A DNA stretch of 64,000 bases from Escherichia coli (GTDB lineage: Bacteria > Pseudomonadota > Gammaproteobacteria > Enterobacterales > Enterobacteriaceae). This document shows positions 4,344-37,293 of the stretch, in pieces. The position numbers and the translations under genes are program-made. The notes under the pieces were generated by a model. That model did no database searches, was not told the origin of the DNA, and was given only the letters and a program-made list of their open reading frames with translations. How positions within the stretch are numbered: the first letter of the stretch is position 1; each line of letters begins with the position of its first letter. The stretch lies in the NCBI RefSeq assembly GCF_030013595.1, contig NZ_CP122768.1; one strand, given 5' to 3'.

Positions 4344-5153
4344 TTATAGGTCTCTAAATATCTCAGAAAGATTGAATTTTTTATAGTCCATCTCTTGAAT
4401 ATTTCCATTTGATATCAATCGATTCATCTCTTCAACAAAATAATTTATATCATCACATTTGTTATTATCCGGAAGATCTGAGTAATTATAATTCCACCAC
4501 TTTATTCTCAACAATTCATCAATAACATTTGAATCAAATCTAAATCTGATTATTTTTGCTGGAACTCCTGCAACTATGGCATATGGGGGCACATCTTTGG
4601 TAACAACGGAATTGGCAGCAATAACAGCACCATCACCTATTGCGATGCCACCTTTCAGTACAACATCATTTCCTATCCAGACATCATTTCCTATAATCGG
4701 ATTTTCAGGTTTGGTAATGAATGGTTTCAATGTCCAGCTACGTTCAAACTCACTCTTAGCAAACTTATCAAATTCACCGTTATAAGTCATCATGTGAGTA
4801 GTAAAACGATTCAAAGGATGATTTCCACCCATTATTTTTACATTTGATGCAATACTACAAAATCGACCTATATGTATATTCCCTGTAAAATGACAGGTCG
4901 GGAATGAAAAAGCGCCGACACTGGAGAAATTTTTTACAGGCATTGTTGAATATTCTTCAGCAATAACATTATCTTCAATTGTTATCTTGTCACCTTTTGA
5001 GAAAAGAAATAAATTTCTTTCTTTATACGACTTCTTCCCCTTATGATTTAAAAAGATTTTATTATCCATACAAAACTCAAAGTGTTTTTTCGCCCACCTG
5101 AAGGTAAGGGTTTTATTTTTATCTTCCGTGAATTTATACAATTGAACTTTCAT
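4344..5153 (-). CDS. Hexapeptide-repeat xenobiotic acetyltransferase (XAT/Vat-like)
   Basis: 269 aa. Contains GNDVWIGNDVVLKGGIAIGDGAVIAANSVVTKDVPPYAIVAGVPAKIIRFRF followed by LLRIKWWNY, the left-handed beta-helix and C-terminal motif typical of Vat(D)/CatB-class enzymes. The gene is very AT-rich and absent from this position in K-12. Confidence 0.8.
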   Translation of the reverse strand: MKVQLYKFTEDKNKTLTFRWAKKHFEFCMDNKIFLNHKGKKSYKERNLFLFSKGDKITIEDNVIAEEYSTMPVKNFSSVGAFSFPTCHFTGNIHIGRFCSIASNVKIMGGNHPLNRFTTHMMTYNGEFDKFAKSEFERSWTLKPFITKPENPIIGNDVWIGNDVVLKGGIAIGDGAVIAANSVVTKDVPPYAIVAGVPAKIIRFRFDSNVIDELLRIKWWNYNYSDLPDNNKCDDINYFVEEMNRLISNGNIQEMDYKKFNLSEIFRDL

Positions 5154-28845: not shown

Positions 28846-29352
28846 TTAAGAGATTTTCAAAGTCTGCTTAGTGCCAGTCTTCTTAATGTTGGTAAGGAAA
28901 GCAGCCGGAGGATTGCTTAACCAGTAATAATGAAAACCACTTTGCATACTGTTATAAGGAACAGTGACAGCAGCACCACCCAAATTAACGGTTATATTCC
29001 CCGCTCTACCGTTCTGGAGATATACAGCCATAGTAGGAGTACCACCATTGAATTGACCAACGATAACGCCAATCAGACGCCCTACGCCCACGTTTTCGGG
29101 GTTCTCCATAGATCCTTTACCGCGCATGTCAGTTACTGGATAGTTTGAAGCAGTTACACCCCAGTTATTACCCAATGAAGTAGACCACGCAGCAGTAGCT
29201 ACAACCGTATCCATACCACGACCACACATCGCGCTCATATTACCAGGTACACCAACTTTTAACGCTTGCATAGCCTCACGCATCCATCTCTTGCCAGTTA
29301 CAGAAACAGCCGATGATCCGACCCAGCCGGGCTTATTAACGACATTTGCCAT
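28846..29352 (-). CDS. Hypothetical tail-region protein, 168 aa
   Basis: ORF with a GGAG SD, located downstream of the terminator that follows the tail-tube gene. Confidence 0.5.
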   Translation of the reverse strand: MANVVNKPGWVGSSAVSVTGKRWMREAMQALKVGVPGNMSAMCGRGMDTVVATAAWSTSLGNNWGVTASNYPVTDMRGKGSMENPENVGVGRLIGVIVGQFNGGTPTMAVYLQNGRAGNITVNLGGAAVTVPYNSMQSGFHYYWLSNPPAAFLTNIKKTGTKQTLKIS

Positions 29353-29367
29353 TTTTATTACTCCAAT

Positions 29368-29395
29368 AAAAAAGCCCCACCATTAAGGCAGGGCT
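29368..29395 (-). terminator. Rho-independent terminator (module copy 1 of 3)
   Basis: Minus strand reads AGCCCTGCC-ttaat-GGTGGGGCT followed by TTTTTT. Confidence 0.75.
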
Positions 29396-29400
29396 TATAA

Positions 29401-29526
29401 TTAATCTTTAGCCTTGCGGCTTCGTTTAGCTGTGGCTTTCGCCGTAACAACCTCTAATTCTGGAATCACCACCGCTTCATGTTCCGGCTGTGGTTCCGGT
29501 TCTATTAAAGGAAGTTCTTCGTTAGT
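29401..29526 (-). other. In-frame 41-codon extension after the TGA of the tail-tube gene (candidate readthrough domain)
   Basis: Hand translation gives TNEELPLIEPEPQPEHEAVVIPELEVVTAKATAKRSRKAKD-TAA. It shares blocks with 35200-35286. Confidence 0.5.
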
Positions 29527-30003
29527 TCATCCGGCAGTATTGAAGATTTCCTGTTTCAGCGGTTTGCCGTCCACTGCAAAGGTAAACTCTTTAGTTACCA
29601 CTTCTTCATCGCCACCGTTCATAGCAACTTTAGAAATAAAGCCGTTGAAAGCGGTGCGAATACCAGTCTGTTTTCCGGCGTCAACATAATACTCTATTTT
29701 GATTTGTACTCTTGTGCCGTCTTCGGCAGCTTTGATCAATTTTTCGTGGACACTATCCCCGGGGATGTAATTCACCGTAAGAGTCAGATCAGGAACATTC
29801 AGTTTACCTACTAGTTTACGGTTATACTGAGAAGAGAAGGATTTAACTTCTACAGTACCGCGCTCGATACCAGTTTCAGGAAAACCAGCACACTCTTTAA
29901 TTTCTTCATAGCCCTCATGGTTGAGAGTGGTGTTAGTGGTATCGGCGTGATAGAACAGACTTACCAGACCACCAGTAAAAATATCTTTAAATTGCTGAGA
30001 CAT
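29527..30003 (-). CDS. Major tail tube protein, 158 aa
   Basis: Small and strongly codon-optimised. Lies upstream of the chaperones and TMP and is followed by a terminator. Paralogous to the N-terminal half of 33598-34431. Confidence 0.6.
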   Translation of the reverse strand: MSQQFKDIFTGGLVSLFYHADTTNTTLNHEGYEEIKECAGFPETGIERGTVEVKSFSSQYNRKLVGKLNVPDLTLTVNYIPGDSVHEKLIKAAEDGTRVQIKIEYYVDAGKQTGIRTAFNGFISKVAMNGGDEEVVTKEFTFAVDGKPLKQEIFNTAG

Positions 30004-33597: not shown

Positions 33598-34431
33598 TTA
33601 ATACTCACCGAAATCGATCCGGTCCGTCTTAGCCACTGCGCCAATTTCGGCTGGCGTAGGCTTCTCGTTTGTTGTATAGACTTTAATCCATTCCGATTTT
33701 CCGTTGTCCTGAATATTTCGTACCCGCAAACGTGGAGCACCGGAAGTATTACACGTTAATTGCCATGCGCCATGCTCATTAGCTTGAAGATGAATTAACG
33801 ATGTATCAGCACCATAAGGGTTAGTGCTAGCCGTTCCTTTGTAGGTTACAAAGCGGTTTCCTGTCAGAGATTCACTATCAATAGGTCCGGTGAATGGGCT
33901 AACGCCTGAGCCTACGCCAAAATCCCCTTGTCGGATGAGTTTTCCCTCGGTCGCTATACCCCTTGCTAGAATCCCGCCATCTGGTTCAAGTTTAAATTCC
34001 AGTGTTACAGCTTTGTTATCACTACCACGGGTTTTATGTGATGTGACGTAAGCATCGAATATACAAAAGTACCCTGTGTTAGCAGCACTATAGCCAGAGT
34101 TCACAACATAGAACATACGGAAGCGTAAAGGTGTTTTATCCTCTACCGCTTTCATCAACATTGCTTGATGTTCGTCATCCAGAACACGGTTTAACGTGAG
34201 TGTCGTCGGTTCCAGTCTACGATAACCAGCAAGTTTCCCCGTAGCGTCCTGATCGTACTCTTCCAGAGTTTCAATCTCTGTGGATTCTGTTAGCGTAGGG
34301 AATGCTGCGACGTTCTCAATAGAACTAAAGCTAGGATCGAAAAAGTCGACCTGATTGTCTAGCTGGTTAGAGATCGACACTTCAACATGCGATCCCGTAA
34401 AAATATCTAAGTTATCTTGTGTAATATTCAT
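33598..34431 (-). CDS. Tail-tube-like protein with C-terminal fibre-like domain, 277 aa
   Basis: The N-terminal 150 aa align by eye with the 158-aa tube protein (FP-T-xxE...LTLTxN...). The C-terminal EKPTPAEIGA motif is also present in the fibre (DKPTPGEIGA). Confidence 0.5.
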   Translation of the reverse strand: MNITQDNLDIFTGSHVEVSISNQLDNQVDFFDPSFSSIENVAAFPTLTESTEIETLEEYDQDATGKLAGYRRLEPTTLTLNRVLDDEHQAMLMKAVEDKTPLRFRMFYVVNSGYSAANTGYFCIFDAYVTSHKTRGSDNKAVTLEFKLEPDGGILARGIATEGKLIRQGDFGVGSGVSPFTGPIDSESLTGNRFVTYKGTASTNPYGADTSLIHLQANEHGAWQLTCNTSGAPRLRVRNIQDNGKSEWIKVYTTNEKPTPAEIGAVAKTDRIDFGEY

Positions 34432-34440
34432 TATTACCCC

Positions 34441-34863
34441 TTAAAAACGCGCTAGATAAGAAAATTTAAGGCTAAGTGTCCCAACGATACCCCCATCACT
34501 AGAATCATCGTCATAATCGGTATTAGAAGCTACTGGAGTGATATCTGAAATTGAGAAGCCCAAATCTTTAAAACGTGGGTTATCCGGCTGAATCTGGATT
34601 ATCTGGCAAATACCCTCATGAATTTTGGTTTCATGAATCTGAGAATACAATTGCATTTCGATAACGCATTCAGCTTGCATTGCATTACCGCCACGGACCC
34701 TATTGTAAGTCTCATTCATTCCGGTGATCCAACAAACCACGTCATCACTAAAGCCTTGCTGAGTTTGTTCTACGTTTAAAGCCAGACCTAAATCTTGTTC
34801 GATAATATCCTGCAAGGCGCGTTTGATTTTCAGTCTAGGCATATTATTAACGGTAGCGAGCAT
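34441..34863 (-). CDS. Head-tail/tail completion protein, about 140 aa
   Basis: Start at MLATVNNMPRL (AGGGGG SD). Called on position between the adaptor and tube genes. Confidence 0.35.
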   Translation of the reverse strand: MLATVNNMPRLKIKRALQDIIEQDLGLALNVEQTQQGFSDDVVCWITGMNETYNRVRGGNAMQAECVIEMQLYSQIHETKIHEGICQIIQIQPDNPRFKDLGFSISDITPVASNTDYDDDSSDGGIVGTLSLKFSYLARF

Positions 34864-35137: not shown

Positions 35138-35167
35138 AGTTACCCCCTTTATGGAGTATTTACATAC

Positions 35168-35194
35168 AAAAAAGCCCCACCGTTAGGCAGGGCT
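35168..35194 (-). terminator. Rho-independent terminator (module copy 2 of 3)
   Basis: Minus strand reads AGCCCTGCC-taac-GGTGGGGCT followed by TTTTTT. Confidence 0.75.
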
Positions 35195-35199
35195 AATTA

Positions 35200-35286
35200 T
35201 TATTTTGCTTTCGGTGGACGTCCCACCTTTTTAGCTGTGGCTTTCGCCGTAACTACCGGAATTTCTTCCGGCAATTCTTCGTTATT
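35200..35286 (-). other. In-frame 28-codon extension after the TGA of the capsid gene (candidate readthrough domain)
   Basis: Hand translation gives NNEELPEEIPVVTAKATAKKVGRPPKAK-TAA. Confidence 0.5.
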
Positions 35287-37293
35287 TCACTCTTCGCCAA
35301 TTTTCAGAACTTTCAGAGCTTCCGGCTGTGCTACAACGTAGTCCAAATCTACAAAGATACGAGGCACTACCGCACCACGGTCACGGTATGTAGTTAGATC
35401 CATATCCAGTTCCAGACCGCCCCACTCACCGATGGTAATACCGGAGAAGTCACCCAGAACGATGTGGTCTGCCGGAATAACGCCAGAAGTAACTACTTCG
35501 TAACCAGCCAGTTTGCCGTTTTCGATGATATAACCGGAAACGCCGTTATCTTTCAGGGTAGATTCCAGTTCGGCAGCAGTTGCACCGCTCATTGCAAACT
35601 TGATCGCCTGAGCAGGAACGCCAGCGTCGGTCAGTGCTGCAATTTCTTTCAGGAAGTCTTTATAAGAGAAAGCAGCTTTCTTGGTAACGCGGCTAGCGTC
35701 TACCAGTTGCTTAACCAGACCAGCCGGACCACGAGCATTTTCTTTATCAGACAGAATCAGTTGTTCCAGTTTGATACGAACAGCTTTGTTAATGTGATCA
35801 GTGATCAGGGTAGCGATGCCCGGAACGGTTTTCAGCGACTGACGGCTGATCGGGTTGCCACCAGCAAAAGTTTTCGGAGACAGTTTCACGTTCGCAAATT
35901 CAGCTTTGCTTTCCGGTGCAGCACCGTTTTCATCAACGAAGCCGAAAGCGTCAACGCTGGAAGCGGTCATTTTTGGAATAGCGGTCGGGGAGTTCAAGCC
36001 ACTGTAAACAGTCACACCCAGACGACCCAGACACGAAGCAGGAAGCAGCATTTCGATGTAGGATTCAGTCATCAGTTTTTCGTCAGTGATAGCGGTCAGG
36101 TCGGCTTTGGTGTTACCAGCAGAAGCAGCACGCAGAGCAGCAGCCGGAACGAATACAGAGCCACCACGAGCAGCACGACCACGCTGCATAGTTGCAGTAG
36201 CAGCCATTGCGGAATATTCAGCTTCGTTAGCGCCGAGCACGTCGCCATCTACCAGGGAGCGGATTACGTTATTAAGATCGAAAGTTTTTTCCATGATTTG
36301 TTCCTTATTAATTTGTTCGTTATTACGTTGAGCATTGGTAATGTTATTTAGTGCCTTAGTGCGGAATGCTTCCGGCGTCATGTCTTTAATTGCCAATGCG
36401 CGTGCTAATTCAGAGTCATCAATATTTAGTTCGCGTGCAATTTCGCGAATTTCTAATTCGTCTTCTTCGGAACGTTCAGCCACTTCCTCGGTTTTTTCTT
36501 CTTCAACCGGAGCGGCTTCACGTTCTTCTTTTACTTCTTCTGTTTCCCGAACAGTTGAACTATCATCATCAACACTTTCAGGATGTTCAGCGTCTTTTCC
36601 GTCTTCGAGATTTTCATCTTCTTTATTCTCTTCAACTTGGCGCTCTTGAGTTTCTTCAACTTCCGGTTCTTTATTTTCTTCTACCGGAGTTTCTTCAACC
36701 TGAGCGGCTTCTTGTTCTTCTTTGATTTCTTCGATTTGTTCTTTAGTCATATCGCGTTTAGCCCCCAAATTAACTGTGATAGTATTTAGAGAGCGATTTA
36801 AACCGACCGTATCGTCTGCGGGCACCGACACCCATGAAATCTCGTGAGGAATCCATTTAGAAACAATGAGTTGCGATTTAGCGTAGTCGATGTGATATTC
36901 TTTAATGTCATAACCGACAGAAATTTTTTCCATCGTACCTTCAATGACTTTATTGCGAATATCATTAGCCAAAGTGCCATGCTTAGAGAATCTAACGGTC
37001 GCACGGCCTACGTTATCCGCATCGATTCGAGCGTTACAAACGACACCAATGTGATTATCGAAATTGTGATTGAACAGCAACGGAGCGTTATTATTCAGAC
37101 GAGACAGATCAACCGCTTCCGGTGTATGTACCAGAATTTCATCTAATACCACCATTTCTTGATTTTGCTCATCCCAAAATTGGCGCTGATAAGGCTGTGT
37201 ACTTGAGAAAGCAATTTCAAATTCGTATTGATCGTTATGCCCTTCATTAATAACTCCACCGTAACCGTTAAGATCGCGGCGAAATTTAAGCAT
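35287..37293 (-). CDS. Prohead protease - acidic scaffold-like linker - HK97-fold major capsid protein, single 668-aa ORF
   Basis: The N-terminal roughly 170 aa resemble HK97-family prohead serine proteases (LLFNHN..., ISVGY). Residues about 180-330 are Glu-rich and repetitive. The C-terminal roughly 335 aa are MCP-like and highly codon-optimised. Confidence 0.7.
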   Translation of the reverse strand: MLKFRRDLNGYGGVINEGHNDQYEFEIAFSSTQPYQRQFWDEQNQEMVVLDEILVHTPEAVDLSRLNNNAPLLFNHNFDNHIGVVCNARIDADNVGRATVRFSKHGTLANDIRNKVIEGTMEKISVGYDIKEYHIDYAKSQLIVSKWIPHEISWVSVPADDTVGLNRSLNTITVNLGAKRDMTKEQIEEIKEEQEAAQVEETPVEENKEPEVEETQERQVEENKEDENLEDGKDAEHPESVDDDSSTVRETEEVKEEREAAPVEEEKTEEVAERSEEDELEIREIARELNIDDSELARALAIKDMTPEAFRTKALNNITNAQRNNEQINKEQIMEKTFDLNNVIRSLVDGDVLGANEAEYSAMAATATMQRGRAARGGSVFVPAAALRAASAGNTKADLTAITDEKLMTESYIEMLLPASCLGRLGVTVYSGLNSPTAIPKMTASSVDAFGFVDENGAAPESKAEFANVKLSPKTFAGGNPISRQSLKTVPGIATLITDHINKAVRIKLEQLILSDKENARGPAGLVKQLVDASRVTKKAAFSYKDFLKEIAALTDAGVPAQAIKFAMSGATAAELESTLKDNGVSGYIIENGKLAGYEVVTSGVIPADHIVLGDFSGITIGEWGGLELDMDLTTYRDRGAVVPRIFVDLDYVVAQPEALKVLKIGEE

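Follow-up and report, generated by a model that had tools for sequence, protein, structure and literature searches.

Why should the major capsid gene and the tail tube gene of one prophage both end in TGA, and why should each stop be followed by codons that stay open in the same frame? The question is raised by a stretch of 64,000 nucleotides (nt) from Escherichia coli (contig NZ_CP122768.1 of RefSeq assembly GCF_030013595.1), referred to here at its full length as the window, in which both genes lie on the minus strand. An initial annotation of this DNA had proposed leaky or programmed UGA readthrough that would put a Lys-rich tail on a minority of capsid and tube subunits. Its description of the layout is correct at both genes: the UGA is followed by A (bases 29526 and 35286), and then come 41 open in-frame codons behind the tube gene and 28 behind the capsid gene. 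The proposal itself gains support from the conservation of the frame, from the exclusive use of TGA-A, and from related motifs fused directly to homologous proteins. We consider it probable, though some distance from certain, that a UGA readthrough module on the capsid and tube genes yields a minority of extended subunits with an acidic linker and a basic tip.

The openness of an extension in one genome alone is not significant; the significance comes from comparative data. Gene ends were compared across about 100 related loci (13 from E. coli and about 40 from IMG/VR, plus Salmonella and Edwardsiella loci), among which 82 copies, 44 of the capsid and 38 of the tube gene, bear an extension. 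These represent 26 and 19 distinct DNA variants, respectively, or 45 in all. TGA-A is kept in 82/82 copies. Frame 0 runs without interruption through all 45 variants, over 28 to 45 codons in capsid genes and 36 to 41 codons in tube genes, and frames +1 and +2 are closed in every variant by 1 to 7 stops each. In a codon-blind MAFFT alignment, the gap classes measure 48, 27, 3, 3, and 3 nt for the capsid and 18, 6, and 3 nt for the tube; all eight are divisible by 3 (chance P about 1.5e-4). The far end of the extension is always formed by strong or tandem stops (TAATAA, TGATAA, or TAA TTA TAA), and for the capsid, the closing stops are TAATAA at 40 of the 44 loci, TGATAA at 3, and TAATAATAA at 1. 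The layout and its evolutionary conservation are in this sense matters of observation.

The company that these gene ends keep is also informative. In the late region of the window (about 18 to 43 kb), TAA ends every long open reading frame (ORF), often as TAA-T, except for the capsid and tube genes, and homologues without an extension (17 tube genes and 5 of 8 capsid genes) end in TAA-T with a terminator immediately after. A capsid lineage at 38% identity (L005 and L032 to L034) carries the same extension behind TGA-A with the same junction, and so the cassette is a module that crosses gene lineages. The two copies in the window share a 24-nt core, GTTACGGCGAAAGCCACAGCTAAA, and a gene-blind scan of IMG/VR for that core returned 52 stretches, in each of which the core continues the frame of an upstream ORF of capsid or tube size that ends in TGA-A. 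Stretches that keep the motif out of frame or riddled with stops were sought there, and none of the 52 is of that kind.

Could the extensions instead be decaying remnants of a longer ancestral capsid and tube, truncated by nonsense mutation, with the codons past the stop still to decay? Because related tails are fused directly in relatives, a longer ancestor with a single ORF is plausible. However, the 45 variants contain no frameshift or stop despite about 96 substitution states and 8 classes of indel, neither TAA nor TAG ever takes the place of TGA, whether at the two genes or in the two capsid lineages (38% identical), and strong or tandem stops always close the extension. We regard such decay as very unlikely.

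What, then, is being conserved? Both extensions begin with xNEELP and end with VVTAKATAK and a basic tail. The order in the tube is an acidic, Pro-rich linker, VVTAKATAK, and RSRKAKD; in the capsid it is NNEELPEEIP, VVTAKATAK, and KVGRPPKAK. Across the related loci, the basic tail takes the forms KKVGRPPKAK, KKAGRPPKAKE, KKQRKTKE, KKERKTKAK, KRGRKPKE, KRSRKAKD, and KRGRKAKN in widely different DNA, and among these variants we saw by eye no K/R position swapped for a non-basic residue. The pattern fits what might be expected of a disordered linker under loose, composition-type constraint.

The motif also occurs in relatives without any stop in front of it. The capsid protein of L138 (from IMG/VR, 39% identity) ends ...KTGVVTAK-TAA, and the tube protein of L058 (48% identity) ends ...EAVVTAKP-TAA TAA, the motif being fused directly in both. 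The motif codons there, GTT GTT ACC GCT AAA and GTA GTT ACT GCT AAA (L138 and L058), differ synonymously from the GTA/GTT GTT ACG GCG AAA of the E. coli core, and the GGCGAAAGCC hairpin is missing from both. Judged by these sequences, the fused motif is the strongest argument that the peptide, rather than the RNA, is the conserved object. Other relatives have capsid ends of ...GETRKAK, ...EASKAK, and ...EAKSKA and tube ends of ...GSRK, ...GLRK, ...SARK, and ...AAKEK. A short basic C-terminal tip on both proteins recurs in many, not all, relatives, and in the E. coli lineage, this tip is set behind a UGA and an acidic spacer.

None of the extensions is annotated by PGAP at the E. coli loci examined. 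One deposited protein, P0001, a "fused" tube protein of 198 amino acids, was considered as a natural sense-codon variant and rejected, the DNA having TGA. It comes from positions 41 to 637 of ENA metagenome contig k141_243218 (L014), where the gene caller rendered the tube TGA as Trp; the deposited P0001 is an annotation artefact that matches the predicted full 198-amino-acid readthrough sequence.

How strong is the case for coding when substitutions, rather than frames and gaps, are counted? For the tube extension, the pooled pairwise ratio of nonsynonymous to synonymous differences (pN/pS) is 0.41 in frame 0, compared with 0.91 and 1.37 in the two alternative frames; for the coding regions upstream, the ratio is 0.12 in the tube gene and 0.24 in the capsid gene. 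When variants are compared within same-length classes, frame-0 pN/pS is lowest in 3 of 4 partitions, a modest signal, with values of 0.72 for the capsid linker, 0.54 for the capsid core plus tail, and 0.31 for the tube linker. The idea that the extension is conserved in relatives holds for frame and openness, which are kept throughout, and less well for substitutions, where the coding signal is weak (pN/pS of 0.4 to 0.8).

Several points weigh against a readthrough peptide and need to be considered together. The pooled pN/pS of the capsid extension is about 0.78 in all three frames, with no discrimination among them; that no substitution creates a stop is just mildly improbable (P=0.07 and 0.20); and selection at the level of substitutions is weak for the extensions. 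The 24-nt core is nearly invariant in its nucleotides, and its rare changes are mostly non-synonymous. Constraint at the nucleotide level, as seen in the invariant core, the compensatory pairs, and the low folding scores described below, could be the main function of the region. BLASTP aligns neither the Edwardsiella nor the Proteus tube tails with the extension, the match staying within the tube domain, and because it stops short of the C-terminal tails, these tails are no more than candidate homologues of the extension. Release factor 2 is generally fully active in natural isolates of E. coli, in contrast to K-12, and basal readthrough of UGA could therefore lie well under 1%. Finally, the ligand and the orientation of the tails are guesses.

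The nucleotide-level signals deserve a closer look. The core is identical at 24/24 nt between the tube and capsid copies and has just 2 sites in the window (0 expected by chance). The initial annotation had argued from synonymous differences that conservation acts on the protein and does not reflect copied DNA. The differences cited (CTT CCT versus TTG CCG and GTT versus GTA) are real; part of the similarity is nonetheless a copied DNA block, because the core is the same in both genes. RNA structure and terminator spacing go beyond what that annotation had seen. Against dinucleotide-preserving shuffles, folding z-scores of the extension RNA are -5.3 for the window capsid, -4.2 for a long capsid variant, and -2.7 for the window tube; z is below -3.2 in 26/26 capsid variants (range, -3.2 to -6.4; mean, -4.6) and below -2 in 13 of 19 tube variants (mean, -2.5). 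In most variants, the first paired base lies 5 to 11 nt past the UGA. Besides the hairpins listed in the table, there are CCCCC/GGGGG in the long capsid form, AGCC-GCAA-GGCU in the tube tail, and GGC-GAAA-GCC inside the core. Three compensatory changes were found: U-A to C-G in L037, within the 11-bp capsid hairpin; C-G to A-U in L008; and U-A to C-G in L021, where GGCGG/CCGCC retains the pairing of the capsid-tail hairpin (read from alignments by eye). RNAalifold covariation is sparse, at 0 to 1 compensatory pair per alignment, and Rfam gave nothing meaningful, either in local searches (E<=10) or over the whole window at gathering thresholds.

Do these features make the region an untranslated cassette of structured 3' untranslated region (UTR) and terminator, or a small RNA derived from the 3' UTR with the core as its seed, which was copied to the ends of the two late genes with the highest expression and is open by accident? 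The identical core, the low z-scores of capsid and tube variants, the three compensatory changes, and the mostly non-synonymous character of the rare core changes would all be accommodated. An untranslated cassette would leave unexplained why 8/8 indel classes are in frame, why frame 0 is stop-free in 45 variants when the other frames are always closed, and why TGA-A is exclusive to these genes when TAA is used elsewhere and in extension-less homologues. It also sits poorly with a VVTAK motif that lies, with synonymous codons and no hairpin, inside the main ORF of relatives, and with the lack of an Rfam match and the sparse covariation. We consider this explanation unlikely. Rivals of this kind can coexist with the readthrough peptide, an RNA-stability role especially: the strong RNA structure would protect a mostly ribosome-free stretch as a stable 3' UTR against RNase and Rho, and the first hairpin may additionally stimulate or tune readthrough.

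Features of the two gene ends, with positions counted from the first letter of the window
Feature	Position	Strand	Basis or remark
Tail tube gene, 158 amino acids	29530..30003	minus	ORF scan; lambda gpV N-domain homologue
Putative leaky stop of the tube gene: TGA, then A at 29526	29527..29529	minus	Sequence; TGA-A kept in 38/38 extension-bearing tube loci
Putative readthrough extension of the tube, 41 codons, TNEELPLIEPEPQPEHEAVVIPELEVVTAKATAKRSRKAKD	29404..29526	minus	Frame 0 open after ...FNTAG TGA
TAA closing the tube extension (TAA TTA TAA)	29401..29403	minus	5 nt ahead of the terminator stem
24-nt core, tube copy; codes VTAKATAK; holds the GGC-GAAA-GCC mini-hairpin (29434-29443)	29425..29448	minus	
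Intrinsic terminator after the tube extension, 10-bp stem and T-run	29366..29396	minus	Rank 1 terminator-like site, minus strand, 28-38 kb
Prohead protease-scaffold-major capsid fusion gene, 668 amino acids	35290..37293	minus	ORF scan and domain matches
Putative leaky stop of the capsid gene: TGA, then A at 35286	35287..35289	minus	TGA-A kept in 44/44 extension-bearing capsid loci
Putative readthrough extension of the capsid, 28 codons, NNEELPEEIPVVTAKATAKKVGRPPKAK	35203..35286	minus	Frame 0 open after ...KIGEE TGA
Tandem TAA TAA closing the capsid extension	35197..35202	minus	Strong stops
24-nt core, capsid copy	35230..35253	minus	
Intrinsic terminator after the capsid extension	35167..35194	minus	Rank 2 terminator-like site, minus strand, 28-38 kb
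11-bp hairpin AAUUGCCGGAA-GAAA-UUCCGGUAGUU	35251..35276	minus	Begins 10 nt past the capsid UGA
Hairpin GGUGG-GACGU-CCACC within the capsid basic-tail codons	35213..35227	minus	RNA folding

The spacing of stops and terminators raises a further question. The stop of each extension sits 5 nt upstream of a terminator stem, the two terminators are closely similar, and they are the top two terminator-like sites on the minus strand between 28 and 38 kb. No promoter-like site was found between these terminators and the co-oriented genes downstream. Is the peptide itself irrelevant, such that a readthrough ribosome arriving at a UAA 5 nt before the stem blocks the terminator, as in the translation-coupled anti-termination of pyrBI, and translational readthrough sets the level of transcription into the low-copy genes downstream of capsid and tube? 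This possibility draws on the placement of the stop ahead of the region's two strongest terminators at both genes, on co-oriented downstream genes with no promoter-like site in between, on an ORF that stays open though the amino acids of the capsid extension are barely constrained, and on a module, terminator included, that is common to both genes. It does not predict the frame-specific purifying selection on the tube extension, the retention of an acidic linker and basic tip despite very different tail DNA, or the VVTAK, RKAK, and SKAK tails that are fused to the capsid and tube proteins of relatives without recoding; a weaker terminator would also be a simpler way to the same outcome. In our judgment, anti-termination is improbable as the main explanation.

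Returning to the readthrough peptide, how would it be made? We posit a portable 3' module in which a weak stop (UGA-A) leads into a mini-ORF that stays open in the same frame, closes with strong or tandem UAA stops, and is followed by an intrinsic terminator. Both the capsid and the tail-tube genes of a lineage of E. coli temperate siphophages would carry this module. In this model, most ribosomes would end at UGA, and a small fraction would decode it, most probably via tRNA-Trp as a near-cognate, and continue for 28 to 45 codons; the predicted Trp junction peptides are IGEE-W-NNEELPEEIPVVTAK for the capsid and NTAG-W-TNEELPLIEPEPQPE for the tube, and the extended forms would exceed the normal ones by about 3 kDa (capsid) and 4.5 kDa (tube). 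An E. coli UGA with a 3' A is described as especially prone to misreading by tRNA-Trp (PMC5289835, which cites Engelberg-Kulka 1981 on this point), UAA-U is the strongest stop in E. coli (PMC5289835), and the products of TGA readthrough in E. coli have mainly Trp inserted (PMC11126739). A leak by design would be expected to show just this contrast between TGA-A at the junction and TAA(TAA) at the close of the extension. We infer translation past the UGA, its level, and the incorporation of its products into virions. Frameshifting is not needed, because the extension lies in frame 0, and the +1/-1 frames hold 1 to 7 stops in every variant. An internal start for an independent small protein was considered and rejected, in-frame ATG, GTG, and TTG codons not being conserved between variants.

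Could the UGA be decoded by dedicated means, such as selenocysteine insertion, a phage-encoded opal suppressor tRNA, or an alternative genetic code? The one feature that recalls such a system is a hairpin beginning about 10 nt past the UGA in many variants. The 64-kb window has no suppressor tRNA (ARAGORN and Rfam) and no selenocysteine insertion sequence (SECIS) or other Rfam match, the sequence just past the UGA varies through indels of 18 to 48 nt, and the ORF scan shows no other long late gene that needs an in-frame TGA. Dedicated decoding is, in our view, extremely improbable. ARAGORN does report a 91-nt tRNA-Gln(UUG) at 34586-34676 on the plus strand, opposite a late gene; it is probably a false positive, because Rfam finds no tRNA anywhere in the window.

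What would tRNA-Trp readthrough add to the virion? The product would be a set of sub-stoichiometric subunits bearing a disordered, acidic, Pro-rich spacer and a Lys/Arg-rich tip (VVTAKATAK and the basic tail). In an AlphaFold2 (AF2) model of the 198-amino-acid tube product, the predicted local distance difference test score (pLDDT) is below 50 for residues 159 to 165 and 172 to 198, and the extension is predicted to be mostly disordered. It has no Pfam domain, and its 28 to 45 residues do not amount to an immunoglobulin (Ig)-like fold of about 80 to 100. A weak AT_hook signal (PF02178) below threshold, at 13.1 bits against a cut-off of 17.4 (E=0.09), falls on ...KKVGRPPKAK of the long-variant capsid extension found in relatives; GRP is missing from the other tail variants. 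We speculate that the extension acts as a sparse cationic "whisker" that would weakly bind an anionic ligand (cell surface, polysaccharide, or DNA), a weak adhesion role such as has been proposed for the Ig and fibronectin type III extensions of SPP1 gp17.1* and other phages (PMC8718954, PMC5009743).

Which way would such a whisker point? The tube extension begins where the Ig-like C-domain of lambda gpV begins. In lambda, that C-terminal Ig domain faces outward. Because it follows the tube domain at the same point, we infer that the tube extension projects outside the tail. T7 10B shows that a capsid protein of the HK97 fold displays what is added to its C terminus on the exterior, and by analogy, the capsid extension may project outside the head. 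A search of the literature on PDB 8GTA found nothing on the orientation of the capsid C terminus, which rests on the T7 analogy.

It is well established that recoding can yield a virion protein in two versions, by frameshifting in tailed phages and by readthrough in RNA phages. How does the present case compare? In Listeria phages PSA, A118, and A500 and Lactobacillus phage A2, programmed frameshifting gives a normal and a C-terminally extended form of the capsid protein and of the major tail protein alike (PMC5009743). As in those phages, both the major capsid and the tail protein of one siphophage would be extended C-terminally here, with the longer form in the minority and readthrough as the predicted route. 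Theirs, however, depend on a frameshift (+1 or -1) at a slippery or a proline site and are folded Ig-like domains that differ between head and tail, whereas here the frame is 0, behind UGA, and the predicted addition is a disordered peptide of 28 to 45 residues with a common core and tip. As with the coat protein and A1 of Qbeta, an E. coli phage would make a minor, extended form of a structural protein when tRNA-Trp reads the leaky UGA that closes a coat gene. Qbeta, in contrast, is a single-stranded RNA phage with a folded extension of roughly 200 residues on a single gene; the present case concerns two genes of a double-stranded DNA (dsDNA) temperate siphophage, a short tail predicted to be disordered, and a terminator after each extension. 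In T7 and T3 (10A/10B) and SPP1 (gp17.1/gp17.1*), a minority of the capsid (T7, T3) or tube (SPP1) subunits is likewise extended C-terminally (PMC5009743, PMC8718954), and these extensions are surface exposed and dispensable in the laboratory, that of T7 not being Ig-like (PMC5009743, PMC8718954). Unlike here, the route is a -1 frameshift in T7 and T3 and ribosomal frameshifting in SPP1, with no readthrough and one gene per phage. The likeness to lambda gpV lies in a matching tube domain and an appendage that starts at the start of the gpV C-domain, but that C-domain is constitutive and folded, whereas the appendage here would be optional (behind a stop), short, and disordered. The present case would then combine the mechanism of Qbeta with the logic of paired extensions, with one extension shared by head and tail and a terminator in the cassette. 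In the literature searched, there is no report of conserved UGA readthrough serving the head and tail of a dsDNA coliphage.

Is the same motif delivered in other ways elsewhere in the group? Prophages of the Edwardsiella type (L015, L016, L054, L110, and L111) have a capsid end of ...TTG GTA AAG CAA GGG TGA T (L015, 2772-2856), in which frame 0 closes after 9 codons and the -1 frame is open from -28 to +62. That frame reads ...ARVIPTGREEVSVKSGRKPKTDN*, a basic tail that resembles the E. coli KRGRKPKE variant, and the G_GUA_AAG there resembles a -1 slippery site. A candidate frameshift stem-loop at this capsid end folds no better than shuffled sequence (z=-1.55). The Edwardsiella-type end may be a frameshift version of the same extension. 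Similarly, in Escherichia phage DCP80 (L059, PQ671644.1; positions 4700-4900), the capsid gene ends GAA AAG ACA GCA TAA with a terminator about 100 nt on, and the -1 frame is open across the capsid stop, ending ...APVKKSKSASG*. The DCP80 record may be chimeric, because it is filed as a 141-kb member of Straboviridae though its structural module is siphophage-like. We suggest, as a tentative generalization with rather less than an even chance of being right, that a programmed-readthrough cassette on capsid and tube displays the same cationic whisker and that the group delivers the motif by fusion (L138 and L058), by UGA readthrough (E. coli), and possibly by a -1 frameshift at G_GUA_AAG (Edwardsiella).

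The tube protein is assigned to PHROG 158, major tail protein (E=7e-22), and has weak matches to Phage_TTP_11/12, tube families of the lambda type in Pfam; the best Foldseek matches of its AF2 model are the lambda tail tube structures 8k36_A, 7t2e_A, and 7t4f_A (E about 1e-6), and the modelled protein is a lambda-like tail tube with a fold comparable to the gpV N-domain. The capsid ORF matches Peptidase_S78 and Phage_capsid in Pfam, PHROG 617, and the major capsid protein of PDB 8gta (E=4e-24). Genes are arranged in the order portal, capsid, head-completion genes, tube paralogue, long fibre, tube, gp38-like adhesin, chaperones, tape measure, and tail tip, and by this content the prophage is a temperate siphophage. 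A blastn search of the tube region against INPHARED phages gave zero matches, and the nearest deposited phage record by protein search is DCP80, at 43 to 45% identity; as far as these searches reach, there is no close cultured relative on deposit. Among 5,426 complete E. coli genomes, 21 carry the tube module and 53 the capsid module, in prophages, and the module is also present in IMG/VR contigs; strains 14EC007 (NZ_CP024131) and ETEC4090 (NZ_CP122620) are two of the E. coli carriers; nothing was found in GTDB species-representative genomes, either by protein pattern or by the 24-nt motif.

The neighboring genes have features of their own. Between the head-completion genes and the fibre gene (1153 amino acids) lies an ORF of 277 amino acids (33598-34431, minus strand) that is a paralogue of the tube (28% identity over 158 amino acids, E=9e-14; PHROG 158) with an extra C-terminal segment of ~120 amino acids like those of tail fibres. 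The phage therefore encodes two tube-fold proteins, and a possible role for the longer one is to build a special ring to which the side fibre is anchored. A gene (28846-29352, minus strand) for the N-domain of a T-even-type gp38 adhesin (PF21721) separates the tube gene from the tail chaperones; because it is missing in some relatives (L011 and L012), we view it as a host-range module that can be swapped and that directly follows the tube terminator. Some carrier prophages are damaged, with IS2 in the fibre gene of L011 (5691-6919) and ISKpn26 in a head-completion gene of L013 (1346-2326); the TGA-A extensions of both are intact.

If the capsid and tube genes are indeed read through as proposed, the structural genes of a tailed dsDNA phage would for the first time be on record as using functional stop-codon readthrough, and tailed-phage biology would gain a new recoding class. 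The case would also provide a natural, tunable E. coli system in which to study UGA-A readthrough and the role of downstream RNA structure, and it would show that annotation pipelines miss such products systematically. What does a sparse cationic tip on a virion bind? That question would follow directly, and the arrangement would point to a minimal scaffold, natural and of low copy number, for display on both the capsid and the tail.

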